From the IMG/VR virus record IMGVR_UViG_3300025057_000003, positions 32,001 to 96,000 of that record: 64,000 bases of DNA, one strand, 5' to 3'. Source of the stretch: a virus. This document shows, piece by piece, positions 1-45,796 of this stretch (its first letter is position 1; every line of letters begins with the position of its first letter). The notes under the pieces were generated by a model that was not told where the DNA came from, ran no database searches, and worked only from the letters and a program-made list of their open reading frames with translations. The position numbers were made by a program, and so were the translations under genes.

Positions 1-1
1 T

Positions 2-3000
2 GTAATTAGTAACTCAGGTCAGGAATTTAATTTTCAAGTATATAATACTGCTTCTGTTACATCTATTAATTTAACGGAACCTACGGATGATGGCGGAACT
101 ATTATTGCTAGAGGGGGTATGGCTTATTGGCAATCAACCGAAAGATACCCTGCCACTGATCCCGTTAGATGGGCTGATTTGTGCGGAGAACCAATAAGAC
201 ATCATAAATTTCCCACAGAAGAAATAAGTTCAAGTTTAGAGTTATCTGCTAATTCTGGCACACGTATTAGGATACTTGGTGTAGAGTTTAGCAATATAGA
301 AAGACCTAAGTTTAATGATGGTACATACATACCAAATATAGTAGGATATGAAATATTAAGAGGATCTAGACAAGGTAATAAGTCAATACTTGCCAAAGGT
401 ATATTTAGAAATATGCGGGAGTATCAGATTCCTGATAATGAAGGTGTATTTGGACCAAAAATTGGATTGTATCCAAACTTTCCATACAATGATTTAAGAG
501 CCGATGTATACCACTATGATGGTTCTGCCGGTAATATAAATTGGCCTTGGGCAGGTAATAGCTCAAGTAATTTTCTTGGAACAGATCCTGTTCCTAGGAC
601 AGATGGATGCGATACTTGGAGTGATTCATTAAGTAACTTTCCTCCATTAACAGATTACAGAAGAGATATATTTACATTTCATTCTCCAGAGTTAATGTTT
701 AAGCGTCCATTTTTAAATCCTTATGAGATTAGAATGTATGGGGCTTATTCAGGAGAAAGTGTTGGTAGCTTTAAAGCTAGTGAAGAGCATCCTCAAAATA
801 AACTGTTAAGAAATGGTGCTGCTATTATAGCAGGTATAATCGGGGTAGGCTATGCTATAGGTCAAATGCAAGGTACACAACAAGTTAAAAAAGTTGATGC
901 TACAAATTCAAATACACCTTGGTTACCAATATGGTTTCTTGCAGGTTTAGCAAATGGAACAAATGTTCCAGGAGTTAATGCTGTAGCAGCCGGAACATCA
1001 ACAGGAACTGGCGCGGGTTCAGTAGCAGCAAATATAATATTAAATGCATTATTAGATGAAGGTACCAAACTTCTTGATATCTCGCTTAGTGGTGGTTCTG
1101 GAAGTGATATTGCATTTTATGTTCAGGCAGCTATTCAACAAGGTCTTGGTCTTGTTCCAGGTATGAATGGCGGTGGTTATGAAAGAACATATATTAAAGA
1201 TAAAGATACATCTTTACTACCCGTAATAGTAAAAATTATAACAGGTGTTGTAAATTCTAGAACAAATATTGCAATAGGTGCTCAAAAGATTATAGATCTA
1301 ATGTATAATCTTATTTCAGCTGAAGACTTTGCATTTAAATATAATTCTTATGGTTTATTTGATTCATATCATAGAACACAAAGTGGTATAAGATTTAGAT
1401 CCAGAAATGTTCAAGCAAATTACATTGGAAATACATTTACAGCATTTAATACACAGTTTAAAATAAATAACTTATTTAGACCAGATACTGTAGTTATTCA
1501 AACTAATGATAATTTTCAAATACCTCAAGATCTTGGGGCACCTCAAGATAGATCTAGATATTGTGTAGGTGGAGATGCTAGTGGTAGTTATGGTGATGAT
1601 TATATAACTAATCCAAATGCTACACAAACAAAGCAAATCTCAGCATTGTATGGCGCATTAAAATTTAATTATGATAATCAGTATGGTCAGATAGAAGGTA
1701 TAAAGCAAGTATCAATGAGTGGTTGTCTATATCAAATTGATACAACAAAGCCTGATAGATTTAGATATGAAACAGGACCGATCTTTAGTGGAGATACATA
1801 TGTAGGAAGATACACTGAAAAAACAATTATGCCAATATTCAGTGATTTCTTGTATGGACAACCCGATCAGTACCCATATAACTATCTACAAAGAATAAAT
1901 ATACCGTATCCAAGATTTTGGATGGATACTAGAAAGTATGATACTTCGGAGCTTGCAACAGAACTATCAACATTAACTTTATCAAATGGTCCAGGATTAG
2001 ATGGGGCATTACCAAATGATCTGTTTTATTTAGATAGAGGTGGTAAGTGCGGAACAAGTTTACTTGGTTTATTTGGGGCTGACAAAGGAGGTAATAGTGC
2101 ATTTGCAATGAGATATGGTTATATGTATACTCACGTAAATGGCATATTAGATTTCTTTGTTGAGTCAGAAGTTCTTTTACCCAACCGAGACTGGGAAGAC
2201 AGTAGAGGTAAAAGACATTATGATAATTTTAGATATACAGATGTAGATGAATTGTTTCATGCTCAAATTATAAAAGAAGATAACAATTATGTTTATGACT
2301 ATTCATTAAGTGCATCTAGATTTGTTACTAACTTAATTCCTAGTGGCGTAATACAACCTAGAGATTATGATCCAGATATTGCAGAGACATGTTTTTCTTA
2401 TTATCCAAAAAGATTAATATATTCTCTTCAAGCCCAAGAAGAAGCAAAGAAAGATTTTTGGAGAGTATTCTTACCTAATAATTATAGAGACTTTAAAGAT
2501 CAGGTTAATGTTATTAAGCCTATTAATAAGAATGGTGCTATTATATTTTTCCCTTATCAGTCTCCTCAAATGTTCCAAGGTATTGATCAGTTACAAACAG
2601 ATCTTAATACTAAAATTACTTTAGGAGATGGCGGATTGTTTAGTCAAGCATTTCAAAATTTAGTTAATTCTGAAATGTCAAATGAGTATGGCTCTTGCGA
2701 AAGTCAAAGAGGTATAATAAATACTCCATTTGGTTTCTTCTTTATATCACAAGCACAGGGTAAGATATTCCAACAGAATGGTCAAGGTTTAAATCCAATA
2801 TCTAATAAAGGAATGAAATGGTGGTTTAATAAATACTTACCATCAAATCTTATACGTCAGTTTCCTGAATTTGAATTTAGCGTACTTGCAGACAATCCAG
2901 TTATTGGAATTGGTTGTCAAGTTATATATGATATTACAGATGATATTGCATACTTCTGTAAAAAAGATTTCTCATTAAAAGAAGAGTATGAAGGTTTAGT

Positions 3001-5182
3001 TACATATGATAGTGAATTAGATTGTTTTGTAACTAATGGAAATCTTCCTTTAAAGAGAATAGAAATTTTACCGCCCCCAATATCAGTAGTTGTCCCAGGT
3101 CAAGGTGAATCTATAGATCAAAATCAACCAGTAACTCCAGGTAGTAAAAGATGTATTGAAATAGGAGATCCCGTTTATTTTGATGATTGTTCTTGGACGG
3201 TAAGTTATGATCCAAAAGCAGAAGCTTGGATATCATTCCATGATTGGCATCCTGAATTATGCATGTCTAGTATAAATCATTTCTTAACTATAAAGTCTGG
3301 TACAACAGATATACCTCAATGTCCTCCGGGATTTGTATATAATGCAGATTTAGAGAAATGTGTAAGACTTATAGATGTAACAGAAGATGCTGTAGTTTCT
3401 GTAGATGAATTAGCAATTGGAGTTCCAGATAGATGTCCTGAAGGGTTTACATTTAATGAACTTACGCAATTGTGCGAGAAGATAACAACTGCACCACTTA
3501 CATGTGAACCTACAGTATATGAGGTATGTGGTGGAACGCAAATAGTTGGAAACTATGGAAAGTTTGGAGCTAGATTTTATGAGCCAGTAGATCCAAATCC
3601 AGCTAATCTTCCAATACAAAGAGCTGGTTCAACGAATATTGAATACCAAAATGGAACTCCATTAACTTTAGTAGCTCAAGTGAATAGTACAAATAATCCA
3701 ACCGGATTTATAAATATATGGCGAGAAAGATTAAATACAGCAGGTGTATGGGGTAATGATGGCGCAGGTGGCCCATGTCCATCTAGAACGTCACTATCGG
3801 GAAGAGATCCAGTAAATGAGTGGATTGGATTTACAACATGTATTCAAATTCCAGAAACAAAAGTTTATAGTGTTTTTATAGCTGCAGATAATAGGACAAG
3901 ATTTAGTTTAAATGGTCAATTGATTGTAGATTTTGGATTATCGGGCCCTGTTGAAAATTTTCAATATGGTTGGGTATTTCCATTATTATTACCTGCAGGA
4001 ACAAGTATATTGCAACTAGAAGGGTATAATGATAGTTCTGTTGCTGCTTTTGCTGCAGAAGTTTATGATGCTACAGCATTAGAGTTAGCCGCATTTACAA
4101 CAATAGGAGAACTTGATGCTGTAAAAGTATTTAGTACAGAAGATTTAATTGGTAGTGGGGCTGTATTTGATATTGGTGAGGCAGGATTAAGTGGTTGTAA
4201 TTGCCCAGAAGGATTTATTTTATCTAATTGTGGAGGAGAACTACAGTGTGTTCAAATTGAAACAGCAGAACCCTCAGAAGGTTGTAATTGTCCAGAAGAT
4301 TACACTTTAGTTTACTTTAATAAAGATGAACAAAACTTTACATTACCTGATGGTGATTGTTTTAATGAAGAACTTCCTCCACCATTGTGTAGAAAAGTAG
4401 AATGTTTATGCCCTCCTGGGCCAGATCCAGATGCTATTGTTACTCAAAGCGGTCAATGTGATGATGTTTATCAATCAGGACCAAGCGGAAATAGATTATA
4501 TATAAATCCAAATCCAAGAAAGTGTATTTATAAATTACAAGAAGAAGCAGAACCTAATTTTAAAGTAGGTGGAATTTGGAGACACAATTATAGATGTGAC
4601 TTATTTGCAAATTACTATAATGTAGATTATCCATGGGAAGTGGAGCTAATTGAAAGTACGGGTCAAAATGTTATGACACTAAGAAGTATAGAGTACCAAT
4701 TAGAAAGTTTCGTATATAAAGGAAATCAATTCAATGCATGCGGTGATGATAAATGGCATGATTTAGATTTCAATTTTGATGAGTCAATTATTTATAATAG
4801 TGAGCAAGTATCAGGATTATTAAGATTAGAGCTAAGTCCAAAAGAAGATCCCATCAATGCATTAACATATCCAATTATAAATGCAAATGATATTCAAATA
4901 TTATATTCAAAAGAAGAACAAAAATATAGATTCAATCAGTTCTGGGATACAACCAATGACAGAGGTGAGTTTAGTAATGCTGAACAAAATATATTAATAA
5001 CACAATGTAATGGTTATATTAGAGAATTGAATGAGTTTAATTTAAATTATAACAAGGCTGAAGATCAAAGAAAGAAATTCAGACACTACTATAACAAAGT
5101 GTTATTAAGAAGAAATTTTTCAAATAATAAAAAGATGCTTCTTACATTAGTAAATTCAAAACTTAACCTATCATTTAGATAA
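2..5182 (+). CDS. Tail stabilisation/nozzle-type virion protein of crAss-like phage (5' truncated by window edge), with Cys-rich plus beta-sandwich insertion
   Basis: The frame is open from position 2 (VISNSGQEF...) into the track's ORF 119..5182. The motifs GMAYWQSTERYP..W.DLCGEPIRHHKFP, GDTYVGRY and SWTVSYDPKAEAWISFHDWHP resemble crAss-like tail stabilisation proteins, and the gene lies directly upstream of the ejected-cargo genes. Confidence 0.75.
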   Translation, partial: VISNSGQEFNFQVYNTASVTSINLTEPTDDGGTIIARGGMAYWQSTERYPATDPVRWADLCGEPIRHHKFPTEEISSSLELSANSGTRIRILGVEFSNIERPKFNDGTYIPNIVGYEILRGSRQGNKSILAKGIFRNMREYQIPDNEGVFGPKIGLYPNFPYNDLRADVYHYDGSAGNINWPWAGNSSSNFLGTDPVPRTDGCDTWSDSLSNFPPLTDYRRDIFTFHSPELMFKRPFLNPYEIRMYGAYSGESVGSFKASEEHPQNKLLRNGAAIIAGIIGVGYAIGQMQGTQQVKKVDATNSNTPWLPIWFLAGLANGTNVPGVNAVAAGTSTGTGAGSVAANIILNALLDEGTKLLDISLSGGSGSDIAFYVQAAIQQGLGLVPGMNGGGYERTYIKDKDTSLLPVIVKIITGVVNSRTNIAIGAQKIIDLMYNLISAEDFAFKYNSYGLFDSYHRTQSGIRFRSRNVQANYIGNTFTAFNTQFKINNLFRPDTVVIQTNDNFQIPQDLGAPQDRSRYCVGGDASGSYGDDYITNPNATQTKQISALYGALKFNYDNQYGQIEGIKQVSMSGCLYQIDTTKPDRFRYETGPIFSGDTYVGRYTEKTIMPIFSDFLYGQPDQYPYNYLQRINIPYPRFWMDTRKYDTSELATELSTLTLSNGPGLDGALPNDLFYLDRGGKCGTSLLGLFGADKGGNSAFAMRYGYMYTHVNGILDFFVESEVLLPNRDWEDSRGKRHYDNFRYTDVDELFHAQIIKEDNNYVYDYSLSASRFVTNLIPSGVIQPRDYDPDIAETCFSYYPKRLIYSLQAQEEAKKDFWRVFLPNNYRDFKDQVNVIKPINKNGAIIFFPYQSPQMFQGIDQLQTDLNTKITLGDGGLFSQAFQNLVNSEMSNEYGSCESQRGIINTPFGFFFISQAQGKIFQQNGQGLNPISNKGMKWWFNKYLPSNLIRQFPEFEFSVLADNPVIGIGCQVIYDITDDIAYFCKKDFSLKEEYEGLVTYDSELDCFVTNGNLPLKRIEILPPPISVVVPGQGESIDQNQPVTPGSKRCIEIGDPVYFDDCSWTVSYDPKAEAWISFHDWHPELCMSSINHFLTIKSGTTDIPQCPPGFVYNADLEKCVRLIDVTEDAVVSVDELAIGVPDRCPEGFTFNELTQLCEKITTAPLTCEPTVYEVCGGTQIVGNYGKFGARFYEPVDPNPANLPIQRAGSTNIEYQNGTPLTLVAQVNSTNNPTGFINIWRERLNTAGVWGNDGAGGPCPSRTSLSGRDPVNEWIGFTTCIQIPETKVYSVFIAADNRTRFSLNGQLIVDFGLSGPVENFQYGWVFPLLLPAGTSILQLEGYNDSSVAAFAAEVYDATALELAAFTTIGELDAVKVFSTEDLIGSGAVFDIGEAGLSGCNCPEGFILSNCGGELQCVQIETAEPSEGCNCPEDYTLVYFNKDEQNFTLPDGDCFNEELPPPLCRKVECLCPPGPDPDAIVTQSGQCDDVYQSGPSGNRLYINPNPRKCIYKLQEEAEPNFKVGGIWRHNYRCDLFANYYNVDYPWEVELIESTGQNVMTLRSIEYQLESFVYKGNQFNACGDDKWHDLDFNFDESIIYNSEQVSGLLRLELSPKEDPINALTYPIINANDIQILYSKEEQKYRFNQFWDTTNDRGEFSNAEQNILITQCNGYIRELNEFNLNYNKAEDQRKKFRHYYNKVLLRRNFSNNKKMLLTLVNSKLNLSFR

Positions 5183-8100
5183 TGAAAAAGTCATATTCAA
5201 ACATAGAGCGTAGAGGTTTACCGGGTGGACCCAATGAAGAAATAAATTTTAGCAACTTAAGTTATTCAACTCAAGGCTATAAAAGATTTAGTCCAGATGT
5301 AAACAATCCATTTAATCTTATTAATTCAGGAAGAATTACAATGAAAGATGTGGACTTTCCTGTTACGGGTATTGATAATCTTGGATATAGAATGACAATG
5401 ATGCCAGATGAAGAATATGAATTTCCAGGTAATGAAGTATTAGAAATACCTCACAGAACTCTAGAGAGCTTGCAACCGCATCATAAAGATCATCATAATA
5501 ATATACATGCTTTTGCTGGTATAACAGGAGATGCTGTTAACCATATGGGAGTATATGGAGGATTTGATACAAAGCATTTTGGTTTACATGGCTCTTATTT
5601 AAAACCTTTACAACAAATAGCACATAACTCAGGTGATATGCATTTAAGTGCAGAGTATAGAGGTGGTAATAATAGATTAAACTTTAATGTAGGCCCTACA
5701 TTTAATATGCATGGTGGCCATCCTAGCTTTGGAGTACAAGGTGGTTTAAGATTTAACTTTCAACCAGGTGGTGAGATAGAAGAAGATATGATGTATTCTC
5801 AACCTATTGAAGATATTATTAGTGATAGGAAGAATGATAGCTATGAGTACAAAAGATCTCAAGATCCTAGAACAGGGGCAATGAGTTATTATCAAAGAAA
5901 GAAAGGTTCTAACACTTGGAGAGATGCGGGCAAAGAGGGAAGTACAGGATACAGAGCTGTAACTAATGTATTTGGGGATGACAAGACCGGCTATGCAAAC
6001 TCACCAGAGAGAGCTCAGTTTCTAGATAAAATGAAGATGAACTATAGAATGAAGGACCAAAATTATATTAGAGGTCTTTTAGATAAAGCAAATCATCCTT
6101 TAGATTTAGTTTATGGTAATCCACAATTAGGCATACCTGCTTTTGGAGAACAGATTAAAAATATGTCTGAGTATAGAGAAGATTTTTTTGATCCATATGG
6201 AGATCAAGAAGATAAATATTTTGCAGAGTATGCGGCAACTCCACAAGAAAGAAAAGCTGCTGCACAACGGGCAAGACAAAATTATTTAAGTAATGTAGGT
6301 AGAACTGAAGAGGAAGATCAAATATATGAAGCAAAAAGACAAAAAGAAATTGATGAAGAGCATGCTAAATGGAGAGCAGAAAGAGAAAAAGATAGATTAG
6401 AAATGGGTCATGATGGCTTTGGTGGAAATGTAGTTGGTGGATGGGAATACACAGGTCAAACTCCAGATGAATATTATGCAGATATGCAAGACTCTGGACT
6501 TGGGGAGATAATGGATTATACAGGTATGACCACAGCAATGAATGTACTTGGTGTAACTGATATTATGAAATTAGGTATGGATGTTGAAGAAAAAGGTATA
6601 GGTGCTTTAACTGATGGAGGTAATTTGTTGACTGTAGCAGGTTTAATTCCTGGTATTGGTATGCTTGGTAAAGGTGCAAATCTTGTGGGAAAAGGTAGTA
6701 AACTTATTAAAACAGGAAAGAACGTAACAAAAGCTATAGATACAGGAAGAGATGTATATAATAAAGCATTAAAGCCAATTAATAAAACTTTAAATAAAAT
6801 TGGAGATGCTAAAAGCAGCAGTAAAATTTTAAATAAATACGGTGTTGGAAGCTTGAGTGATTTTAATAAAAATGTTCTAAAGAAAAATATAATATCATCA
6901 TCTAATCCAGCAATGCAAAAAAATATAGATAATGTTTTTAATACTACTAAAAAGCTTGGATTATCAAATGACTTATGGGGTGCAGCTACTGGATATGGAA
7001 TGTATAATTCATTAGATGCTGTAGATAGAATAGTGCATGGTGAAGGTAGTACAGATGATTTTGTCAAAGCAGGATTAAATTTTATACCAGGTGCAAATAT
7101 TGCTAAATCAACAGGTTTAGCTACGTATGGAACAAAGGCTGGTTTAAAGGCTATAGATAAATCAGGAGTATTTGATGATGAAAAAAATGAACGTCAAATA
7201 TCTCAACAAAACAACCAATTAAGAACAACAATGTTTCAAGGCGGTGGTGAAAGCGGAAGACGTAACTTAAATGATCTTTATGTTTCACCTTCAGATTTAG
7301 CTTATTTAAATAGACCATCTACAAAGAATGATCCTAATGAATATTATTGTAACCCGGGTGATGTAGGTTGTTTAGCAAGCTCTTATGATGCATATGATAA
7401 ACTTGTTGGACAAAGATATAGAAGTGATGAATTTTTATCGGAGCAAGGTTTAAAAAAATCTCTAGGCTTGCAAAGTTTACCAAGCCGATGGGATTCTCGT
7501 TCCGGAACAGGATATGACTGGGACCCAGAAACAAATGATTTTGTTTATTATAAAAATGACCAGGAAACAAAAAGATATAAGCCTGGATCTACCACACATG
7601 ATTGGATCATGAAGTATAAAGATTATTTCCAAAAAGGATATGAGGGAGAAGAGCAAGGTGGAGGATATGACTTTACAGCTGATAGCTGGGATATACATGG
7701 GATTCTTGTAGATCAAGGTGGAAAGAATGTATTTACTGGCGGTACTGAGTGGGATAACTATAACAAAACGGGTAACATAATGACTCCTGAGAAATTAAAA
7801 AACCTTTATTCAGAAATGACTCCCGGAACAATAATAGGTTTTAATAATTATAATAAAGGACTCAATCCTAAAAAAGGATTAACAGGTTCTGGTCATAGTA
7901 CCCAAGTTGTTGGTTATGATGAAAGAGGTGTTCCTGTAATATATGATTATGGTGATTATCTTCCAATTGATAAACTTGGTTTAGAACAGGGAGGTTTATA
8001 TAGTATAGATCAAATAAGTAATATCACTATACCAAAAGAACATATAGGAAAAAATTTAGAATGGGCAAAAGAAAAAGGTTATTGGACAGGCGAAGATCCT

Positions 8101-9300
8101 AAAGATTTAAATCTTAATTTAGAACCTATACTATCAAGATGGGGTCAAGATGATGATGAGCTTCCTGATTTTTATGCAGGTTTAAAAGATGAAAAGTTTA
8201 ATTTGATGGATGATCTTAACCTTAAAGAAAGTCAATATGATCAAATGGCCGCTGCACTTATAGGCATTGCAATGGAAGAAACAGAAGGTGGAGGTGGTTT
8301 CCAACATAATATAGAACAACTTTTACCTGGTACGGCAGGTCAAGATACTTCTGGTTTAACTCAATTAATGTGGTCTAATATTGCAGACGATGAAAAATTA
8401 AAGAAGATTGCTGAAAAGTATGGAATTACTAAACAATCAGATTTAAAAGATTCTAAAAAGTCTGCTATTGCTTCTATGATATATGGATCAAGAAACTATT
8501 TAGCCGCACAAAAGAATTTAAAGGCGGGAAAAAAAGAAGGTATTAGAACATATTATCCTCCAGGTTGGAAAGGCACACTTAAAAGATTAAAAGGAGATAA
8601 CCAAGTATATGATGGAAAAACATTTATAACAGAAGGTGGAAAACAAATAGATTTATTTACTGGAAATAATTGGTCGGGTATTGGCTGGACAAAAGACTTA
8701 GAGGATATTCAAGAACAACTTGATGCTGCATCTGAAGCTGAAGGAATACCCGGTAGATACACAGCACGTAAAACTACAGATGATGATGGAGATGAAGTAA
8801 TTGTTATAGATAAAAAGACTTTAGGTAATGCAGATATGGATCCTATAGATGCATTTATTTATAATTGGAATTCACCTTATGCCTTAACATCTGGGGATGC
8901 TCAGGGTGGATCTGGTTATGTTAAAAATGTTAAGAGTTGGATGGATCAGATAAAAATGCAAGCTGGTGGTGAAATTACTCCAGAGCATGTTCAACAAAAA
9001 CAAAAAACGTTGGAAGAAGAGTTAGCTAAAATGGAACAATATAATTTGAATCCTGCTCAGAAGATGCAACTTACAGAATCACTTATTGATGCATATAATG
9101 ATACGGTTCCTTATAAATTTAAAATGGGTGGCCCAACTCTTCAACCAGAATTCCAAATGTATAAAGATTATATAGTGGGTAAAGATGAGAGTGAGGATGC
9201 TAGAAGAAACTATGATAAACTTAATAGAGTTTACTATAGAGAAGCCAAAATCAAAAACATGAAACCGGCTAACTATATAATGAGTGAGCTGATATCTTAA
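5182..9300 (+). CDS. Multidomain virion/ejection protein: beta-barrel-like segment, shared module, NlpC/CHAP-like amidase, lysozyme-like (SLT) domain
   Basis: 1372 aa, TAATG-coupled to the upstream gene. CHAP/NlpC-like motifs: GCLASSY..DSWDIH..PGTIIGF..GHSTQVVG. Lytic-transglycosylase-like motifs: IGIAMEETEGG..TSGLTQL..SAIASMIY..YNWN..YVKNV. Confidence 0.7.
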   Translation: MKKSYSNIERRGLPGGPNEEINFSNLSYSTQGYKRFSPDVNNPFNLINSGRITMKDVDFPVTGIDNLGYRMTMMPDEEYEFPGNEVLEIPHRTLESLQPHHKDHHNNIHAFAGITGDAVNHMGVYGGFDTKHFGLHGSYLKPLQQIAHNSGDMHLSAEYRGGNNRLNFNVGPTFNMHGGHPSFGVQGGLRFNFQPGGEIEEDMMYSQPIEDIISDRKNDSYEYKRSQDPRTGAMSYYQRKKGSNTWRDAGKEGSTGYRAVTNVFGDDKTGYANSPERAQFLDKMKMNYRMKDQNYIRGLLDKANHPLDLVYGNPQLGIPAFGEQIKNMSEYREDFFDPYGDQEDKYFAEYAATPQERKAAAQRARQNYLSNVGRTEEEDQIYEAKRQKEIDEEHAKWRAEREKDRLEMGHDGFGGNVVGGWEYTGQTPDEYYADMQDSGLGEIMDYTGMTTAMNVLGVTDIMKLGMDVEEKGIGALTDGGNLLTVAGLIPGIGMLGKGANLVGKGSKLIKTGKNVTKAIDTGRDVYNKALKPINKTLNKIGDAKSSSKILNKYGVGSLSDFNKNVLKKNIISSSNPAMQKNIDNVFNTTKKLGLSNDLWGAATGYGMYNSLDAVDRIVHGEGSTDDFVKAGLNFIPGANIAKSTGLATYGTKAGLKAIDKSGVFDDEKNERQISQQNNQLRTTMFQGGGESGRRNLNDLYVSPSDLAYLNRPSTKNDPNEYYCNPGDVGCLASSYDAYDKLVGQRYRSDEFLSEQGLKKSLGLQSLPSRWDSRSGTGYDWDPETNDFVYYKNDQETKRYKPGSTTHDWIMKYKDYFQKGYEGEEQGGGYDFTADSWDIHGILVDQGGKNVFTGGTEWDNYNKTGNIMTPEKLKNLYSEMTPGTIIGFNNYNKGLNPKKGLTGSGHSTQVVGYDERGVPVIYDYGDYLPIDKLGLEQGGLYSIDQISNITIPKEHIGKNLEWAKEKGYWTGEDPKDLNLNLEPILSRWGQDDDELPDFYAGLKDEKFNLMDDLNLKESQYDQMAAALIGIAMEETEGGGGFQHNIEQLLPGTAGQDTSGLTQLMWSNIADDEKLKKIAEKYGITKQSDLKDSKKSAIASMIYGSRNYLAAQKNLKAGKKEGIRTYYPPGWKGTLKRLKGDNQVYDGKTFITEGGKQIDLFTGNNWSGIGWTKDLEDIQEQLDAASEAEGIPGRYTARKTTDDDGDEVIVIDKKTLGNADMDPIDAFIYNWNSPYALTSGDAQGGSGYVKNVKSWMDQIKMQAGGEITPEHVQQKQKTLEEELAKMEQYNLNPAQKMQLTESLIDAYNDTVPYKFKMGGPTLQPEFQMYKDYIVGKDESEDARRNYDKLNRVYYREAKIKNMKPANYIMSELIS

Positions 9301-9328
9301 ATTATAAATTAGTAAATGTTAGTAATTA

Positions 9329-9341
9329 TTTGTATATTATA
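9329..9341 (+). promoter_or_regulatory. Putative late promoter element TTTGTATATTATA
   Basis: Lies in the 63-nt gap upstream of ORF 9364; an identical 13-mer occurs at 43559-43571 upstream of the second late block. Confidence 0.5.
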
Positions 9342-9363
9342 ATTGTATGTAATAATATAAAAA

Positions 9364-12300
9364 ATGGGTTATAGAGATTTAAACAATAGAGGTTTGCATG
9401 CAATGAGGATGCAGCAATTTATGCAAGGAGGTGGTCAACCACAAATGGCGCCACCACAAATGGAAGCAAAGCAATCCCCTATAGATGAACTAATACCTGC
9501 TATAAAGTCAGCTCTAGAACAAGGTGCTGCTTTACCAGACGTTATTGTTAGTTTAGCGCAAAATCAAGTTCCAATTGAAGCTATCCAACAAGCTTTAATG
9601 GCAGCAGGTATAGCTCAAGAAGAAATTCAGCAAGCTTTTCAAATGCTGCAACAACAGCAGGCTGAACTTGAAAGTCAATCTCAACAAACAGAAGGACCTG
9701 TTGAACCTTCTGCTCAACCACAAGGAGGGGCACCTGCTCCAGAAATGGCGCCTGAGCAAGCTCAAATGCCAATGGCACAAGGAGGTGCTGAAATTGGATT
9801 TGCTCAACAAGGTCAAAATAATGTAGGACCTTCTATTAACTCAGATATCCCAGAATACCAAGAACCTATTGAAGAAGTCATCAGTGAAAGACTTGATGAA
9901 GAAGGTAAGGTAATAAAGGATAATTGGGAATACAAAAAAACTACAGATCCTAACACAGGTCAGATTTTTTATGAACGAAGAAAAAAGGGAAGTAAAAACT
10001 GGATTGATGCAGGAGAAGAAGGTAGTAATTCATATAGAGCTATTACAGATATTTTTGGTGATGACAAGACAAATTGGAAAAGTTCTCCAGAAAGAGCGGA
10101 TCATGTAGCAGGTCTAAAGCAAGGCTATAGGGATATGATGGCAGCACAAAAAGCTAAAGAGTTAGAGGCTGCAGCTCAAGAGCAAGGTATAGACTTTTCA
10201 AAATATGGTGTTAAGGTAATAAATTATCCATATGAATATAAAGGTATGCCTCCTGGACACATTGAAGCCGTATTCTATGATAAAGAAACAGGTGAACCAA
10301 TGAATGAAGTTGGTGGGATATCAACTAGAATTAATAGATGGGGTTCAGGTTATGGTGGCGATGGTCCAAGAATAACAGGAGATGAAGGTTATACTCAAGC
10401 ACTGGTAGATTTTGATGCTTTAAACATGCCAGGTGTTAGAAGTGCAGACTTAGATTTGACTCCAGAACAAATGATGCAATTTATCGCTGAGGCTAATAAG
10501 TTCAAAGGTACATCTTATAAGAATTTAAATGAAAAACAAAAGAATTTCTTAAAGATGATTAACCCTGATATTAGCCAAATACCTATGGCTTTTGGTACGG
10601 GTAGTGATGATAATTATGATTTCTTAACTTCCAATTGTGCAGATGGTGTTTGTAGAGGATTAGGTTTAGATAGAGATCAGTTTACATCTGCAGGAATAAC
10701 TAATCCAGAAAAAGTTATGGATTACATTTTACAAGGTAATAATATAAGCAATGTACAAGGAAAAAAAGGACCAAGTAAAGAAGAGTTTTTAAAAAATGTA
10801 ATTGATCAATCTGGAATTAATAAGTATACAATTGGCGGCTTATCTGATAAAAATATAAACATGTTGTCTGATTTTGTAGATAATATATCTAGAGAAGAGG
10901 CACAAAATCTAGCAACATATGCACCAATAGCTGCTCACTATGGTAACAAAACAAAAGAGGTTCTTAATAGAGGTATTGACTTAGATCAGTCCTTCGGAGA
11001 TATGCTTACAAATACTGGTAACTATTGGCGTGATTTAATTAAGAATAGTGCTGCAACTGGAATTGCAGGATATATGGCTCTTCCAGATGGTACTATACCA
11101 ACTGCGTTAGATGCTGGAGCAAGGGAATATATTTATGAGCCCATAAAAGATGCAACTGGTGGTTTAATTGATTTAGATCAATCTGCGGGTGACATGTTTG
11201 ACAACACAGTAAAATATTGGAAAAGAGAAGGAATTGGCGGTCTTTGGCCTTTTGAACAGGGGGGACAACCAAATAAATATTCAAGTATAATAAATGGTAA
11301 TAAAATGAAATATTCAAATCTATTTAAAAATGGAGGTGGTTATAATAACCCAGGCTTTAGATCATTACCTCAATATGTTCAAAACAAAATAAAAAGGAAT
11401 GCTCAGGAGGGAACTGAAATAGCAGAAGCTATACCTTTAGATATATCTGCAGAACAACAAGCATATATGGATGCTAAAGCTGCATATGATGCTGAGATGG
11501 CTAGAGTGCAGGGTGTTAGAAATAAGACTGCAGAGTTAGCTAGAAAATATGGTGATGCTAATGCATCTTACTCAGATGTAGGTATATCAGATAGATTAGC
11601 AAATTGGATTAATGATACAGGTTTTGCTTGTAATACATATTCTTGTCAGATTATGAGAGAAGCTGGAGCAACAATTCCACAAGGAACCGAACCATTTGAA
11701 ATGAATGGTAGAACATATCGTCCTGGAGATAAGCTTCCTATTATACCAGGTAATGCTCAATTTAACTCTTACGCTGATAAGTTAGGATTTGAACTTATGC
11801 CCAAAGGTACATTGCCAACAGAAGCTGGAGATCTTGTTAGAGGGCATATGTATAATGCAGGTCCGGGTGCAAGTAGCGGTTCATTTCATAGTGTGCTTTC
11901 TGCAGGGTATGGTGATGATGAAATTTTAGATCTATATAATAACCCAGGAGGTGTGTATTCAGGATATCAAAAATCTGGATTTGAAGGTAGTGATCCTGAC
12001 TTTTATACAAATGATTCTGGTGTAATGAGATATGTTGGAGACTCAATAAGATTAAAAGAAGCAATGGATAAAGCTAAGCAAGCATATGATGCAACCATGC
12101 CTCTTGATCAATCAGTAGTTGATTCAAATCCAAACTCTATAGCAAACCTTACTAGGCAATATGGAGGTGAAGGTATGGCAGAAATTCAGCAAGGTCCTCA
12201 ACGTACACCTAGCACGGAAGAATTAATGGCTATAATACAAAAACAACAGATGCAAATGCAACAAATGCAAATGCAGATGCAACAAATGATGCAGGCGCAA

Positions 12301-12453
12301 CAAGCGGAAAAAGAAGTTGGGCAAGCAGAAATGGCAATGCAACCTACTTATAGAACGCAGAGTGCTCAAAAGCAATCTGGAGGAACAGTAGAACTTGATA
12401 CTGAAACAATAGCAAAGATAATGGCTGCCGGTGGTAGCGTTAAATTTAAATAA
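9364..12453 (+). CDS. Multidomain virion/ejection protein with permuted papain-like and NlpC/P60-like domains
   Basis: 1029 aa with Q/M-rich ends. GHIEAVF...YDFLTSNCADGVCRGL gives His-before-Cys (permuted papain/PPPDE/LRAT order); ACNTYSCQIM..EAGDLVRG..FHSVL is NlpC/P60-like. Confidence 0.65.
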   Translation: MGYRDLNNRGLHAMRMQQFMQGGGQPQMAPPQMEAKQSPIDELIPAIKSALEQGAALPDVIVSLAQNQVPIEAIQQALMAAGIAQEEIQQAFQMLQQQQAELESQSQQTEGPVEPSAQPQGGAPAPEMAPEQAQMPMAQGGAEIGFAQQGQNNVGPSINSDIPEYQEPIEEVISERLDEEGKVIKDNWEYKKTTDPNTGQIFYERRKKGSKNWIDAGEEGSNSYRAITDIFGDDKTNWKSSPERADHVAGLKQGYRDMMAAQKAKELEAAAQEQGIDFSKYGVKVINYPYEYKGMPPGHIEAVFYDKETGEPMNEVGGISTRINRWGSGYGGDGPRITGDEGYTQALVDFDALNMPGVRSADLDLTPEQMMQFIAEANKFKGTSYKNLNEKQKNFLKMINPDISQIPMAFGTGSDDNYDFLTSNCADGVCRGLGLDRDQFTSAGITNPEKVMDYILQGNNISNVQGKKGPSKEEFLKNVIDQSGINKYTIGGLSDKNINMLSDFVDNISREEAQNLATYAPIAAHYGNKTKEVLNRGIDLDQSFGDMLTNTGNYWRDLIKNSAATGIAGYMALPDGTIPTALDAGAREYIYEPIKDATGGLIDLDQSAGDMFDNTVKYWKREGIGGLWPFEQGGQPNKYSSIINGNKMKYSNLFKNGGGYNNPGFRSLPQYVQNKIKRNAQEGTEIAEAIPLDISAEQQAYMDAKAAYDAEMARVQGVRNKTAELARKYGDANASYSDVGISDRLANWINDTGFACNTYSCQIMREAGATIPQGTEPFEMNGRTYRPGDKLPIIPGNAQFNSYADKLGFELMPKGTLPTEAGDLVRGHMYNAGPGASSGSFHSVLSAGYGDDEILDLYNNPGGVYSGYQKSGFEGSDPDFYTNDSGVMRYVGDSIRLKEAMDKAKQAYDATMPLDQSVVDSNPNSIANLTRQYGGEGMAEIQQGPQRTPSTEELMAIIQKQQMQMQQMQMQMQQMMQAQQAEKEVGQAEMAMQPTYRTQSAQKQSGGTVELDTETIAKIMAAGGSVKFK

Positions 12454-12454
12454 T

Positions 12455-15400
12455 ATGCCTAAAGTTAAAAACAGTAAACATAGGGTTGAGGTAACTTTAC
12501 CTGATGGATTTCAATTAGTAGATGGCAAACTAGTTAAAAAAGGACATGGTGGTCATGTTACCGGTGATCAATATGAGTATGGGTTAACTACATTTAATCC
12601 ACATGCTGGTGAATCTATGGGCCCAAAAGATACAGATGTAAAGTATAGCTTATCATCTGTACCTAGAGATATAGCTAATATAGAAGCTGAAGGTGGTGAA
12701 ACTGTTTTAACTGATTTAAATAATGATGGTCAGTTTGGTCTTTATGATATAGTTGGCCCTAGACATTCTAGCGGTGGTGTACCAATGTTACTACCAGAAC
12801 AATCATTTATTTTTTCTGATACCCAGGCAATGAAAATGGGTAAAGGTATGTTAGCAGAACATGGAATTCAGTCTAGAAAGAAGATGACTCCTGCTAAAGT
12901 ATCTAAACAATATAACTTAAATAAATATTACGGTATTCTAAATGATGAGTATGCAGATAAGATACAAGCTAATACAGCAGATCTTATGTTGCAGAAAAAC
13001 AAAGAAGGTTTATCTAAGTTAGCTTTTCAATCAGAGATGATGAAAGGATTTGAGGAAGGCGTACCTTTAGCCGCATATCCTTATATACAATCTATAGGTA
13101 TGGACCCATTTGAGTTTGCTCAAAAAATGGAAGGCATGCAGCAAGGTTCTGGTGATCAGCAAGCTCAACCAATGAATGAAGCAGATGCTCAAGCAATGAG
13201 TGCAATGGCTGCCTATGGTAGAGAATTAAATCAAGCTCAGTTTGGCTATGGTAACATTGGCGGAATGGGTTTTGATAATTATAGAAATTTCAATCAAGTA
13301 TTTGGTGAAGATATGGTACGTCCTAATATAAGGAGTGCTTATATGCCAATGAATCTTAATATGAAAGGGAATGCTATTGGTGCATTTAACAATCTTGTAG
13401 AAGGCGCTGGTAGATTATTTAGTAAGCAAGATGAAGATGGAGATGGTTTAGCTGATGGTGCTTTTAGAGATTTAAAAGCTAAAACTAATAGATATAGAGA
13501 TACTCATAAATTCTTAAAAGGTAAGACTACAGAGGGAATGGAGAATATGGGTGATAAAACTATGCTAAAGTATAATCCTGAAACAATGGGATATGATGTC
13601 CAGTATAATGATCCTAGATATCAATCTAATGTAAAAACGGGAGATATCTTTACAGAGAAAAGCAAGCGTAAACTAATGCATGCACCTGATCTAGAAGGCT
13701 ACAAGTCATTTAATGAAATGCAAAAAGAAATGTCAGGTTTATCTGATGATCAAAAAGACCAAATGAGATATATGGGTGAAAGCCTAACTGATTTTCAAAA
13801 CGAAAAGGTAAATATGCCAAAAGGGATGCAGTTTGGAATGGATGCTAGCGGAGGTATTGGATACTATGATGCGGGAGCAACTTTACCTGAAGGAAGTCAA
13901 GAGCGTATTAACGAAATGATGATGACAGGTAGTTATAATAAAAGACTTGGTGGAGGATTAAGAAAAGCTCAATTTGGAAACTTTGATTTTACACAATTAC
14001 CACCAGAGCTTGCAAAATATTTTCCTAATCAATCACAACAAGATTTTGGCCCTATGGGTCCTACACCGTATCAGCAAAAAATGATGAATCAAGCTGAGCA
14101 AATTAAGAATGATCCTGCAAGTTTTTTCCAAAACTTTAACCCGCAAACATTTGGTCAAACTGATGACTATGCTAATGTACAAAGTTTAGGTCCAGATCTT
14201 AAACTACAACAAGATGTTAAAAATAGAAATGAAGTAACTCCAGAAGATCCAGATCCACGAAATGCAGGAGAAAAATTAGCAGGAGGTATAAATAGAATGA
14301 TGAATAGCCCTCTTATGAATGCATTTGGTGAAGGTTCTGTTTTTGCAACTAAAGGTGCTGACTTTATAAATGAGATGGCAAAAAATAGAAAAAGAAAAAG
14401 AGCTGAGAATGATCTGCAGAGGATGACTATGGCAGATAATCAGTTTGGTATATCAGAGCCGGGTATATTATCTCAAGGTACTTATGATGAGAATACTGGT
14501 GATGTATTTTCAATTATGCAAGGTGTTTCTCCATTTGGAGGAAATGCTTCTTACTATGGTAAGCATGGTTTTGAAATACCTATGTTGCAAGATGGAGGAG
14601 AACCATCTTGGAAAGTAGGTGATGAGCTAACTGGAGGTACTGATGCTTGGACTGATTGGTATATGTCAGATGAGAATAAAGACGGAAGAAAGAAAAGATA
14701 TGAAACTTACGTATTCTTAAAAGAAGCTCAGGCAAAAAAGCAAGGAAAGACGTTTGATAAAAGCAAGCTTCCTACAGAAGAAGAATTTCATGATACTTAT
14801 GTAAGAGCTCAGAAACAAATCAATGCTATACAAAACTTTGATTTTGGTGATCCAGATTATTTAAAAAGAACAGATTGGGATTCTTCATGGGAGTTTGATC
14901 CTAAGTATAAGAATGCTAAACAAGCTTTAAAAGCTGGAGCAGCAACAAAAAGAGGTCAAAACTTTAGATATAAAGATGCAATTAAACAAATCAATGATAA
15001 GATTAAACAAGATGCTAAGGTAAACAATCCCGATATCACTGATGAAGAATTAAATAAACTTTTATTTAAAGAGTTAGATGACGCAGGAATTAGAATATTC
15101 CAAACAGGATATCAAGCTGGTCAAATAATGAATGTAGCAGATAATGATGAGTTTCTAAAGTTTATTCAGTCTGGTATTGATGATGACACATTTACATGGA
15201 ATGGTGTAACTTATACTATATCTCCTGAAGATGCAGCATTTGGTAATACAACTGTAGGTCAAAGAGAACAAACTACTGTACCTATATATCCTTGTAAACC
15301 TTGTCCTGATGGACCAGATAAAGGAAAAGTTCCTGAAAGAGATGAGGATGGTAATTGCCCTTGTGGTGATTGTCCTACATGTCCAGAAGGTAAAGTTCCC

Positions 15401-16342
15401 GGACTGCCAACTGAATCTGAACCATGTCCTTGTCAAGACGCACGAAAAATTGAAGAGCCTGATGATCCAGAAATGGCGGCTCCTCCTGAAATGACACCAT
15501 GGATTCAAGATCTAATTAAGACAGAAGCTATTGCAAATAGAGAAAGAGATATGTTCTTTCCATGGGAACCTGCAGTTAGAAGATCTAACTTAGAAGTAAT
15601 GTTAGAAGATCCTAACAGAGCAATTAATGCAGCTAATGCTCAATATGCAGCTTCTGCCCAAGCTCTTGGTGCTTTTGGAGGTAAGAATCAATTAGCAGCA
15701 AATTTATCTGGAATGGCTGGACAAGCTGCAGATAATGTTGCAAATATAATTGCTGGTGTAAATGCAAGAAATGTTGCAAGTGTTAACCGAGCTAATGAGG
15801 TTAATCAAAACATAGAAATGCAACTTAATCAATTAGAGGATGCAAGTAAAGTTAGACAGTATGATAATACTCAAAAAGTTCTACAAACATATATGGATGA
15901 AAAGAACTTTGATAGAGAACAATACGCAGATGCTATAGCTAATACAATTACAAATATGGCTAACACATATAATGTAAATCAAATGTATGACTACTTTAAT
16001 ATTGATCCACTAAGAGGAGGTGTTGTAGGTCAAGTAGGTGCTAAAGCATTCCAACCTACTCCAGAACAAGATGAGTGGGCATTTATGGATGATTGGATGG
16101 AAGCAACTAAAAGAGCTAAAACAATGGGTCTTGTAAATAAAGAGGGGAATGTTGATCCTGCAGTTATACAAGGAATACTTCAATCAAAAAGTGGTCAGCG
16201 TAACTATGCAGATCCAAGAGAAGAAGCATGGAGACAGCAGTATAGAAACTATATGGCCGGAGCTCAGACAAGAAAAACAGGTGGTCAACCTGAGATGAAG
16301 AAATGGGCTAGTCCATTTTATACAGGGAAGATGGGAGTATAA
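12455..16342 (+). CDS. Internal virion protein (EAEGGE-containing N-terminal domain, Cys/Pro-rich linker, helical C-terminus)
   Basis: The track ORF 12431..16342 starts at GTG; the ATG at 12455, immediately after the upstream stop, is more likely. NIEAEGGET..GPRHSSGGV..FIFSD N-terminal motif; located in the cargo gene block. Confidence 0.65.
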   Translation: MPKVKNSKHRVEVTLPDGFQLVDGKLVKKGHGGHVTGDQYEYGLTTFNPHAGESMGPKDTDVKYSLSSVPRDIANIEAEGGETVLTDLNNDGQFGLYDIVGPRHSSGGVPMLLPEQSFIFSDTQAMKMGKGMLAEHGIQSRKKMTPAKVSKQYNLNKYYGILNDEYADKIQANTADLMLQKNKEGLSKLAFQSEMMKGFEEGVPLAAYPYIQSIGMDPFEFAQKMEGMQQGSGDQQAQPMNEADAQAMSAMAAYGRELNQAQFGYGNIGGMGFDNYRNFNQVFGEDMVRPNIRSAYMPMNLNMKGNAIGAFNNLVEGAGRLFSKQDEDGDGLADGAFRDLKAKTNRYRDTHKFLKGKTTEGMENMGDKTMLKYNPETMGYDVQYNDPRYQSNVKTGDIFTEKSKRKLMHAPDLEGYKSFNEMQKEMSGLSDDQKDQMRYMGESLTDFQNEKVNMPKGMQFGMDASGGIGYYDAGATLPEGSQERINEMMMTGSYNKRLGGGLRKAQFGNFDFTQLPPELAKYFPNQSQQDFGPMGPTPYQQKMMNQAEQIKNDPASFFQNFNPQTFGQTDDYANVQSLGPDLKLQQDVKNRNEVTPEDPDPRNAGEKLAGGINRMMNSPLMNAFGEGSVFATKGADFINEMAKNRKRKRAENDLQRMTMADNQFGISEPGILSQGTYDENTGDVFSIMQGVSPFGGNASYYGKHGFEIPMLQDGGEPSWKVGDELTGGTDAWTDWYMSDENKDGRKKRYETYVFLKEAQAKKQGKTFDKSKLPTEEEFHDTYVRAQKQINAIQNFDFGDPDYLKRTDWDSSWEFDPKYKNAKQALKAGAATKRGQNFRYKDAIKQINDKIKQDAKVNNPDITDEELNKLLFKELDDAGIRIFQTGYQAGQIMNVADNDEFLKFIQSGIDDDTFTWNGVTYTISPEDAAFGNTTVGQREQTTVPIYPCKPCPDGPDKGKVPERDEDGNCPCGDCPTCPEGKVPGLPTESEPCPCQDARKIEEPDDPEMAAPPEMTPWIQDLIKTEAIANRERDMFFPWEPAVRRSNLEVMLEDPNRAINAANAQYAASAQALGAFGGKNQLAANLSGMAGQAADNVANIIAGVNARNVASVNRANEVNQNIEMQLNQLEDASKVRQYDNTQKVLQTYMDEKNFDREQYADAIANTITNMANTYNVNQMYDYFNIDPLRGGVVGQVGAKAFQPTPEQDEWAFMDDWMEATKRAKTMGLVNKEGNVDPAVIQGILQSKSGQRNYADPREEAWRQQYRNYMAGAQTRKTGGQPEMKKWASPFYTGKMGV

Positions 16343-44819: not shown

Positions 44820-45347
44820 ATGCCTTATAATATGAAAAAAGCTGGTATGAAATACCAAGATGGAGGGTCTATAAAAAAAACAGCAAAAAAAGCTGTAAAT
44901 AAAGCAAAGTCAGTAGATGATGCAATTGAAAAAAAATATCCTTCAGTTGCAAAAAACCCTGCATACAAAGGGGCGAAGTCTGCAGCTAAAAGTACCTTAA
45001 AATATCTTGGCTTAATGCAGAAAGGTGGAGCAATGAAATCACCAGATGCTTCTAAATATGTGGGTAATCCAATGGGTTACTATGCTGATAAAGCAGCTTA
45101 CGGAAGAGAGATGGCCCGTCAAAAGATGATGCAAGGTGGTGGTGCTTATGACAGTAACATTGAAGCTCTTAATGTAATAGAACAAGAGCGTGATGCTATG
45201 CGAGCTAGAAAACAAAACAGATTGGATTCTAAATTAAAAAGAAAGCAAACAAAAGAAAAAATCTCTAGTGTTAATGCAGATATAGCTAGAAATAGATCTG
45301 ATAAAAGAGCAGCTAATCAATCTAATAGAATGTTTAAAAGAAGATAA
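44820..45347 (+). CDS. Basic protein with multiple QxGG motifs (candidate internal head protein)
   Basis: 175 aa containing YQDGG, MQKGG, AAYGRE and MMQGGG. Confidence 0.7.
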   Translation: MPYNMKKAGMKYQDGGSIKKTAKKAVNKAKSVDDAIEKKYPSVAKNPAYKGAKSAAKSTLKYLGLMQKGGAMKSPDASKYVGNPMGYYADKAAYGREMARQKMMQGGGAYDSNIEALNVIEQERDAMRARKQNRLDSKLKRKQTKEKISSVNADIARNRSDKRAANQSNRMFKRR

Positions 45348-45349
45348 TT

Positions 45350-45796
45350 ATGGCAGCACCTTGGGTTACAAAATTATTTGGAGGTCTTCTTAGTAAAGCA
45401 GATACAATCATAGATGAGGTAGTCACTTCTAAAGAGGAAAAGATTACCCTTAAAAATGCTATGCAAAAAATGCTGCTTGACAGTGAGGCTGTTGTTCAAG
45501 AGAATGTAACAGAACGTTGGAAAGCAGATATGAGCTCTGATTCATGGTTATCCAAAAATGTCAGACCTATGGTTCTGATTTTTTTGGTTGTATGCACTAT
45601 GATTTTAGTATTTATTGATGCGGGTTTTATTGACTTTAAAGTAGAAGATAAATGGATTAACTTACTAGAGATCACATTGCTTACTGTTATTGGAGCATAC
45701 TTTGGTGGTAGATCTATTGAGAAAGTTAAGAATACAAATGTTGTAAAAAATGAGACTAAACGTAAAGGTCTATTCAGAAAGAAAGAAGAAGAGTAG
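45350..45796 (+). CDS. Holin (3TM/GTA-holin-like family)
   Basis: ERWKADMSSDSWLSKNVRP, two hydrophobic helices, then GAYFGGRSIEK and a basic tail. Confidence 0.8.
   Translation: MAAPWVTKLFGGLLSKADTIIDEVVTSKEEKITLKNAMQKMLLDSEAVVQENVTERWKADMSSDSWLSKNVRPMVLIFLVVCTMILVFIDAGFIDFKVEDKWINLLEITLLTVIGAYFGGRSIEKVKNTNVVKNETKRKGLFRKKEEE

Follow-up and report, generated by a model that had tools for sequence, protein, structure and literature searches.

Little is understood of the way in which podophages, and above all crassviruses, take up, keep and discharge megadaltons of internal protein. The question is raised by a 64,000-nucleotide (nt) stretch of viral DNA (the window), comprising bases 32001-96000 of the 115,584-base-pair IMG/VR virus record IMGVR_UViG_3300025057_000003, which is rated complete by CheckV. 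Its source is an uncultured marine crAss-like podophage, and Pfam matches to Crass_capsid, CrAss_Ring_2 and CrAss_Ring_1 lie upstream of the window. The three genes that follow the muzzle-protein gene are presumed, by synteny, to encode ejected, envelope-breaching cargo; their products are called here cargo 1 (open reading frame (ORF) 5182), cargo 2 (ORF 9364) and cargo 3 (ORF 12431). A first-pass annotation had noticed that these proteins are punctuated by a short peptide ending in Gly-Gly, and had proposed that this tag docks cargo or marks maturation cleavage sites. What is the tag, where is it used, and what reads it? The tag is Φ-[Q/K]-x-G-G (Φ = Met, Phe, Tyr), often followed by x-[LI]-[PSD]-[KEQ]-A-Q-x-G, and it is a junction code at the level of protein. 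Its enrichment is confined to the presumed cargo genes and to small basic late proteins. That it is a protease cutting site, at or next to the Gly-Gly, is the reading to which we lean slightly over an uncut docking signal, at a rough probability of 0.42.

Expected motif counts were calculated analytically from each protein's own composition, with Poisson probabilities. The loose pattern of the first-pass annotation, [MFYA][QKE].GG, was observed 19 times in the late-strand genes of the source genome against 4.76 expected (P 7e-7) and once outside the late strand (0.87 expected). The strict pattern [MFY][QK].GG gave 15 against 1.9 expected in late-strand genes (P 2e-9) and 1 against 0.4 elsewhere. 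The tag pattern had been chosen post hoc from the data and was therefore re-tested on independent sequence, namely 78 related viral contigs that were gathered via the muzzle protein with 10-kb flanks and in which unique proteins were counted; a pattern scan in which viral contigs were queried with ORF 5182 had found nothing. The three genes after the muzzle gene contained 210 strict tags versus 19.7 expected, an approximately 10-fold excess, and the small upstream proteins 11 versus 0.9. The muzzle protein itself was not enriched (12 versus 9.9) and the other large structural proteins held a single tag (6.0 expected). These 78 loci are not independent samples; even so, their kinship is offset by the wide variation in cargo lengths and contents, and by the contrast between gene classes being internal to each genome. 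Control patterns in the same loci (reversed, x-A-A, x-S-S) were flat. Comparison by gene class of four complete genomes of the clade gave the same picture: 22 tags versus 1.79 expected in cargo genes and 18 versus 0.99 in late proteins below 250 amino acids (aa), against 1 versus 3.28 in other late proteins of at least 250 aa, 1 versus 1.63 in opposite-strand replication genes and 3 versus 1.15 in the RNA polymerase (RNAP) polyproteins, which were judged not enriched. The scarcity in replication genes and RNAP had been noticed by eye in the first-pass annotation, which had proposed a test of late against early genes in this genome and its relatives. A site NMKSGG in the RNAP polyprotein was considered as a tag and judged to be chance, being absent from genomes G003 and G005.

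Over 226 unique sites the information sits in the five motif positions, with more than 3 bits each at the Φ and Q/K positions and less than 0.5 bit in the flanks. Usage at the Q/K position is near-equal (Q 125, K 101), and the residue after Gly-Gly is Glu at 24 % and Ser at 14 % of sites. Around the sites, composition and hydropathy were no different from those at positions drawn at random from these proteins. Synonymous codons are used at the motif as they are in the background, so that selection acts on the peptide and not on a DNA recombination site; a recombination signal at the DNA level was ruled out on this ground. A second motif, [LMIV]-[PSD]-[KEQ]-A-Q-x-G with core [KEQ]-A-Q-x-G, was found to be cargo-specific (136 versus 11.7 expected in the 78 loci) and often lies 1-3 residues downstream of Gly-Gly. 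The motifs listed in the first-pass annotation were all located where it had placed them, for example at F193 (nt 5758) and M1259 (nt 8956) of ORF 5182, F19 of ORF 9364 (nt 9418) and M718 of the 12431 frame (nt 14582), and its assumption that cargo 3 starts at ATG 12455 is most likely correct. Its list mixed two motifs, however: MAQGG (ORF 9364 aa 137), FAQQG, AQEG and AQFG belong to the second motif, homologues reading MAQDGTEV at the MAQGG site. KKGHGG in cargo 3 is a degenerate copy, at a place where orthologues have M-[QK]-x-G-G; ORF 12431 contains 0 strict matches.

The tag stands where modules meet. Breakpoints, defined as positions at which two proteins both run on but their homology sets in or breaks off, were collected from an all-against-all comparison of 174 cargo proteins. 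Homology ended within 5 residues of Gly-Gly in 172 + 224 cases, compared with about 40 per bin at random, and started there in 385 (42 at random); the pile-up at the tag was 5- to 9-fold overall. A breakpoint was found at most 5 residues away from 66 % of the unique internal tag sites and 72 % of A-Q-x-G sites, versus 35 % of other Gly-Gly pairs and 27 % of random positions. The Gly-Gly columns are near-invariant from 87 % down to ~30 % identity, and the flanks vary in sequence and length. In alignments of database homologues the Gly-Gly columns of cargo 1 are conserved across 41 sequences, and G24, G141, G633, G634 and G658 of cargo 2 are invariant or nearly so in 22. Modules of 130-420 residues (148-419 aa in cargo 1 homologues, after FQPGGE and ending at another QPGGE) are inserted exactly behind a tag and closed by a second one, as in the cassettes FKPGGE-[270 aa]-MAQPGGE of ORF 5182 homologues and KQRGGE-[130 aa]-KLKMGGE of ORF 9364 homologues. 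These breakpoint statistics and alignments back the first-pass claim that the motifs bracket modules.

The tag is also found near the ends of chains. It starts within the first 30 residues at 43 of 232 unique sites, and three leader classes end in a tag at residues 8-37, each orthologous family having its own conserved leader. With a centred dot marking the position after Gly-Gly, the cargo 1 leader reads M-x(8-14)-[RS]-GLPGG·PNE (the variant leader in the window ends GLPGG, nt 5215-5229), the cargo 2 leader ..LNKKSL-x-YQEGG· (here ..MRMQQFMQGGG·) and the cargo 3 leader, in orthologues, MAKIKINKLPxGFxIxDGKVV..M[QK]xGG·.TGDQxDYGLVT. Small proteins carry the leader N-x-x-GV[RK][VI]PGM[FY]KKGG·. 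At the other end of cargo 2 an amphipathic tail follows directly after a tag, as ..Q-x-GGE·VEVDxxTLAxLIAAGADIEIL; its consensus after Q-x-G-G-[ET] is x-V-E-[VL]-D-x-x-T-[IL]-A-x-[IL]-[IM]-A-A-G-[GA]-x-[IV]-[KE]-x-x. In the window this tail is TVELDTETIAKIMAAGGSVKFK, with a helix at residues 1013-1021 in the AlphaFold (AF2) model. The MAAGG of the first-pass list falls within this conserved tail peptide.

Joints and gene boundaries were found to be equivalent in several places. In three relatives (L060, L077, L078) an extra module stands in front of the cargo-3 domain in one fused protein, and the joint reads ..KIAQMGG·EMKRKVKVTSLP at exactly the point where the stand-alone genes begin MAKIKINSLP. 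In another (L017), ..IRAQYGG·NISTEGYKRNS lies inside the chain and corresponds in alignment to ..RGLPGG·PNE.. at the N-terminus of other cargo-1 proteins. A DUF5872 module is a free-standing 99-aa protein here and is embedded, with Gly-Gly on both sides, in cargo 1 of L060, L062, L077 and L078. From the two states of this module and the fused joints it follows that small tag bearers and cargo modules are drawn from a common pool. Between the two ring genes lie three small genes that share the 13-residue tag GVR[VI]PGM[FYI]KK, which is N-terminal in two of them (tag-GG-body) and C-terminal in the DUF5872 protein (body-AKHGG-tag). Met/His-rich mini-modules (H-F-M-P-D-G-T-L-M; F-H-W-M-K-D-G-S-G-Y-K-L-M-K-H; E-F-E-P-H-M-M-Y-D-P) were observed in small proteins at genome positions 28990-29847 (window -3010 to -2153) and as beads in the cargo of relatives (e.g. 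L013, L030), often directly after a tag. Their composition suggests that they may bind metal, of the copper type.

The assignment of the three ORFs to a cargo slot follows from their surroundings. The muzzle gene is closely preceded by CrAss_Ring_2 and CrAss_Ring_1 genes, and the RNAP polyprotein downstream matches virion RNA polymerases (see the table), so that the ORFs correspond to the gp45/gp46 cargo slot of crAss001; the csAssE-Sib homologue of the muzzle-slot protein is annotated Muzzle protein. In crAss001 the cargo proteins C1 (gp45) and C2 (gp46) are encoded directly after the muzzle and before the RNAP genes (PMC10172136). The proteins studied here share with C1 and C2 this post-muzzle, pre-RNAP slot in a Crassvirales genome and the presumed storage in tail and capsid followed by ejection to build the trans-envelope path, but they are larger and mosaic, and C1 and C2 are without the strict tag. 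The family crAss_CARG1 (PF25725) was not matched in six frames at E<=1, and tblastn of ORFs 9364 and 12431 against crAss001 revealed no similarity.

The proteins rich in tags have the look of enzymes that breach the cell envelope. The folded core of cargo 1 is, judged from its model, probably a papain-like/CHAP domain followed by an SLT-like lytic transglycosylase: Foldseek matched the core weakly to SltB2, MltF, MltE and a papain-like protease, and SLT and LysM domains are recognised by Pfam in distant homologues. In cargo 2 the elements PGHIE (aa 297-301) and NCADGVC (aa 424-430) of the permuted papain-like domain are conserved; aligned with VIA-align, aa 277-468 weakly resembled the MARTX RID domain (Z 6.9) and TseH of the type VI secretion system (T6SS) (Z 6.4), and aa 717-891 aligned, again weakly, with Tae3, a T6SS amidase (Z 6.6, root mean square deviation 3.3 over 108 residues). 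The first-pass labels amidase, lysozyme, permuted papain and NlpC-like are therefore plausible but tentative: the weak fold matches (Z 6.4-6.9) and the SLT and LysM domains of homologues speak for them, and the proteins themselves gave no Pfam or PHROG hit. Scans of ORFs 5182, 9364, 12431 and 16402 against Pfam and PHROGs gave no match, nor did a tblastn search of 50,697 phage records with ORFs 5182 and 9364, whole-model Foldseek searches with the ORF 9364 and ORF 5182 models (E<=0.001) or a PDB profile search. Cargo 1 and cargo 2 also share a paralogous module, which spans aa 170-289 of ORF 5182 (5692-6048) and aa 113-256 of ORF 9364 (9700-10131) with 38-40 % identity (E 1e-22) and starts at the tag in both.

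Table. Positions of the muzzle, cargo, RNA polymerase and small tag-bearing genes, and of elements within them, in the window
Feature	Position (nt)	Strand	Remarks
Muzzle-protein gene, 3' part	1..5182	+	2138 aa; starts 1234 nt before the window; synteny anchor; PHROG virion structural protein
Cargo protein 1, 1372 aa	5182..9300	+	Tags FQPGG 5758-5772, FQGGG 7234-7248, MQAGG 8956-8970, FKMGG 9118-9132
Cargo 1 enzymatic folded core, aa 692-1257	7255..8952	+	Bounded by tags at 685 and 1259; AF2 predicted local distance difference test (pLDDT) mostly 75-95
Cargo protein 2, 1029 aa	9364..12453	+	Leader and FMQGGG 9418-9435; MAQGG 9772-9786 (AQ.G type)
Cargo protein 2, further tags	11251-11265; 11323-11337; 12154-12168; 12370-12384	+	FEQGG; FKNGG; RQYGG; KQSGG (in order of position)
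Cargo 2 permuted papain-like (His-before-Cys) domain, aa 277-468	10192..10767	+	No Pfam hit
Cargo 2 second NlpC/P60-like domain, aa 717-891	11512..12036	+	VIA-align to T6SS amidase Tae3
Cargo 2 C-terminal tail peptide TVELDTETIAKIMAAGGSVKFK	12385..12450	+	Attached to body via KQSGG; conserved family-wide
Cargo protein 3	12455..16342	+	Leader with degenerate KKGHGG 12536-12553; GGG and LRKAQFG 13949-13978; LQDGG 14585-14599; RKTGG 16271-16285
RNA-polymerase polyprotein, 5244 aa	19727..35461	+	Not tag-enriched; matches virion RNA polymerases crAss001 gp50 and phi14:2 g066
Small basic late protein, 175 aa	44820..45347	+	YQDGG 44853-44867, MQKGG 45015-45029, MQGGG 45129-45143
Late protein, 61 aa	46094..46279	+	Tag MQLGGG 46232-46246
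Basic late protein, 80 aa	47891..48133	+	Tag MKLGG 48035-48049; orthologous DNLMKLGGAV in genome G002

The 175-aa tag bearer has homologues in two of five relatives, and three other genomes have similar small tag bearers in the corresponding block. It is adjoined by a 148-aa protein with membrane segments (window 45350-45796), which is probably the source of a GTA_holin_3TM match (E 5e-5) obtained from a gene set that was scanned together. The 1119-aa and 1898-aa proteins encoded beside the RNAP polyprotein are tag-poor. Between the RNAP-associated genes and the lysis/tail block lies a sole opposite-strand gene, for a class II-like ribonucleotide reductase (window 41358-43217, minus strand; PHROG 367, E 3e-133); its motif match MQFGG looks like chance.

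The tag is restricted in its range among phages, and the range crosses taxonomic lines. No enrichment of the strict tag was found in gp44-gp50 of crAss001, g065-g071 of phi14:2, the Flavobacterium phage FPSV-S29 or csAssE-Sib. Phage phi4:1, a cultured phage of Cellulophaga baltica that is not a member of Crassvirales, carries four tags (0.19 expected) in gp040 (L086, 26334-29021), namely FQAGG(85), YQNGG(328), FQIGG(519) and FQSGG(552). This gp040 is annotated as a virion protein from tandem mass spectrometry, and its N-terminus is homologous to that of ORF 5182. It is encoded two genes downstream of gp042, a muzzle-family protein, and the pairing of the two indicates that the muzzle-plus-cargo module crosses current taxonomic borders. 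The tag is present, and weaker, in the Leptolyngbya phage Lbo-JY46.

As unrelated modules share the tag, it would be read by one common partner acting in trans. Under the cutting-site reading, the precursor would enter the particle by means of its leaders and tails, and a protease would cut at or beside Gly-Gly, in the particle or on ejection. Cutting would free the address peptides and separate the modules, giving lytic enzymes, membrane segments and small basic peptides. A cutting site accounts for the two-sided cassettes, for the symmetry of tag-GG-body and body-GG-tag, for end peptides that lie beside a universal site, and for the equivalence of joints and gene boundaries. Purely inferred candidates for the enzyme are the papain-like domains of the cargo and an HExxH site in the co-packaged RNAP polyprotein. 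The latter, a single HEAFH (nt 26378-26392, aa 2218), is found as [YF]HEAFH.VFR at a shared position in four genomes, with strand-like segments ahead of it; as far as its sequence tells, it may be a zincin and a candidate packaged protease, reminiscent of the zincins by which polyvalent virion proteins are predicted to be processed (PMC5512222). Scans of all other proteins returned only the early-strand DUF1287/CHAP, DUF2201 metallopeptidase-vWA and ClpS proteins. The DUF1287 protein (235 aa, genome 108191-108898, minus strand, outside the window; E 4e-47, overlapping CHAP, YkuD_2 and DUF2459) lies in the replication block and is a predicted papain-like hydrolase, the only clear papain-like gene. 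Comparison of the tag-positive phi4:1 with the profile of the tag-negative phi14:2 and crAss001 yielded no enzyme; it singled out only portal, capsid, rings, muzzle and the N-terminus of ORF 5182. The phage further encodes ClpS, a GroES-like Cpn10, a spore-photoproduct-lyase-like protein and a MoxR/vWA-metallopeptidase (DUF2201) set, an unusual proteostasis combination.

Several observations weigh against a cutting site. Prohead proteases of types S77 and S78 were not matched in a six-frame Pfam search of the whole genome (E<=1), the proteins of the head module gave no protease hit in Pfam and PHROGs, C5 (PF00770), C48 (PF02902) and C39 (PF03412) were not matched in six frames (E<=1), and neither was MPTase-PolyVal in Pfam (E<=1). 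The papain-like domains of the cargo resemble peptidoglycan amidases of type VI effectors, and wall amidase activity may be their sole role. An adenain-like pattern, [MFYLIV].GG with the hydrophobic residue at P4, is unenriched in the cargo of the 78 loci (301 versus 346.6 expected); enrichment requires a hydrophobic residue at P5, one position further upstream than in adenain sites, together with Q or K. The Q/K position tolerates R, S, A or E in some orthologues. Not one gene has its end at Gly-Gly or its start directly behind it, and every polypeptide keeps its own N-terminal tag, which fits a tag required on each chain equally well. Several small tag-bearing proteins adjoin the holin-like gene, and some of them may be parts of a lysis cassette and not virion proteins. 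In the AlphaFold models (mean pLDDT 56.6 for ORF 9364 and 66.7 for aa 173-1372 of ORF 5182) all 10 sites lie in stretches below pLDDT 50 between confident domains, which favours a role at joints, but the test is weak because other Gly-Gly pairs often fall in such low-confidence loops too. No processing is reported in the crAss001 atlas (PMC10172136).

Many of these points are accommodated by an uncut tag, which is nearly as likely as a cutting site. A repeated site in the particle, on portal, ring, muzzle or scaffold, would hold the intact cargo chain, unfolded or folded in part, in register for storage and ordered extrusion, the joints bearing the tag only through being exposed. This agrees with the failure of the genome searches to find a protease and with a near-N-terminal tag on each polypeptide combined with the lack of genes that end at GG. 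In crAss001 one cargo chain extends through both tail and capsid, and short segments of cargo are docked on portal, tail barrel and muzzle (PMC10172136). The muzzle family, moreover, co-occurs with tag bearers in phi4:1 and Lbo-JY46, but FPSV-S29 and csAssE-Sib have a muzzle homologue and no tags. Docking leaves unexplained why inserted cassettes are tagged on two sides, why families have specific leaders and tails besides the tag, and why the same module occurs free-standing or embedded. Furthermore, packing would be needed as well for the RNAP polyprotein and for two more large proteins presumed to be cargo, yet they are without the tag.

It is improbable that the motif is not read at all and is a passive, flexible Gly-Gly hinge, with flanks conserved through recombination of modules together with their linkers. 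Its position in low-confidence, loop-like stretches, where other Gly-Gly pairs are found likewise, and the movement of modules between proteins and phages would suit a hinge. However, synonymous codons follow background, so that no shared DNA was copied; the motif is kept at orthologous sites over the whole range of identities while its flanks change; the reversed, A-A and S-S patterns are unenriched; and the information at Φ and Q/K far exceeds that of the flanks. Least probable of all, and hardly to be expected, is a covalent modification, i.e. isopeptide cross-linking of Gln and Lys by a packaged papain-like (transglutaminase-type) domain, or recognition by a host periplasmic factor after ejection: it would fit the near-equal use of Q and K at one position, the papain-like domains within the cargo and the tag-rich proteins being the envelope-acting ones and not the RNAP set, but the Q/K position is replaced in some orthologues, no transglutaminase family was matched, and the proposal is purely speculative and without precedent.

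A literature search found no paper describing such a motif. Address and junction signals on packed phage proteins are already known; new are the Φ-[QK]-x-G-G signal, its use at module joints and its occurrence in an order without a known maturation protease. The tag predicts cargo proteins in uncultured marine phages, delimits their modules without the need of a structure, and explains how new effectors can be acquired, each within a cassette that the tag flanks. Should cutting occur there, a phage order supposed to have no maturation protease would contain one that has escaped recognition; should the tag instead dock cargo uncut, it would lead to the site in the particle that binds and arranges that cargo. 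Whichever holds, the signal is portable and could be used to package foreign proteins in particles of this kind. Phage phi4:1 is a cultured system in which cut and uncut tags can be told apart by experiment now.

Among known systems, the polyvalent proteins of phages and conjugative elements (Iyer et al. 2017) combine many unrelated effector domains in one virion-delivered chain, and self-processing by embedded peptidases has been predicted for them (PMC5512222). The proteins described here likewise hold several unrelated globular domains per presumed delivered chain, separated by long low-confidence linkers and varying between relatives. No junction motif has been defined in polyvalent proteins, however, their MPTase-PolyVal is unmatched here, and their domains are anti-defence enzymes in contrast to envelope enzymes. 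The double-glycine leaders that are processed by the C39 peptidase domains of ABC exporters resemble the N-terminal leaders of ~8-37 residues ending in Gly-Gly; they differ in that no C39 domain was matched in the genome, their hydrophobic pattern at -4, -7 and -12 is unseen, and the internal and C-terminal uses of the tag have no counterpart.

Closer in design are the head-processing systems of T4 and phiKZ. The internal proteins of T4 (IPI-III, Alt) carry a capsid-targeting sequence that is removed by the prohead protease gp21; head processing in phiKZ and SPN3US is related to that of T4, and the cut sites are L/I-x-E in T4 and S/A/G-x-E in phiKZ. Shared with these phages are N-terminal address peptides on unrelated proteins that are packed and ejected (presumably so here), a universal short site between address and body, and small basic bearers. 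The tag differs in its core, Φ-[QK]-x-G-G, with Glu after Gly-Gly in only 24 % of sites, and in its additional use at internal joints and before C-terminal tails, as a putative cut site. T4 and phiKZ also have an S77-type protease gene in the head module, whereas none was detected here. The analogy with T4 and phiKZ drawn in the first-pass annotation consequently holds in logic only, the motif being different and a prohead-type protease not having been detected; its description of a portable signal between interchangeable modules stands, and the signal is confined to the presumed cargo and small late proteins.

Adenain, a clan CE protease, cuts at (M/I/L)-X-G-G·X in core and cement precursors of adenoviruses, and pS273R of African swine fever virus (ASFV) at G-G·X sites of polyproteins. 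These are proteases of eukaryotic viruses, the hydrophobic residue of the tag stands one position further upstream than in their sites, and no C5, C48 or C63-like match was found here. Common to both are a hydrophobic residue upstream of Gly-Gly, its occurrence in internal virion proteins including small basic DNA-associated ones, the terminal peptides, and, for ASFV, the polyprotein logic. The proposed cutting would thus follow the same logic as capsid targeting and gp21 cleavage in T4, head processing of the phiKZ type, core-protein maturation in adenovirus and the ASFV system. By analogy, and as a fuller picture that must itself be called doubtful, marine crAss-like podophages and phi4:1 might mature their payload in the style of adenovirus and ASFV, with loading by end peptides, cuts at Φ-[QK]-x-G-G by a packaged protease and release of mixed effectors. 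If so, wall-degrading enzymes, membrane segments, Met/His-rich mini-peptides and basic peptides would be freed, and new effectors would be added as tag-flanked cassettes.

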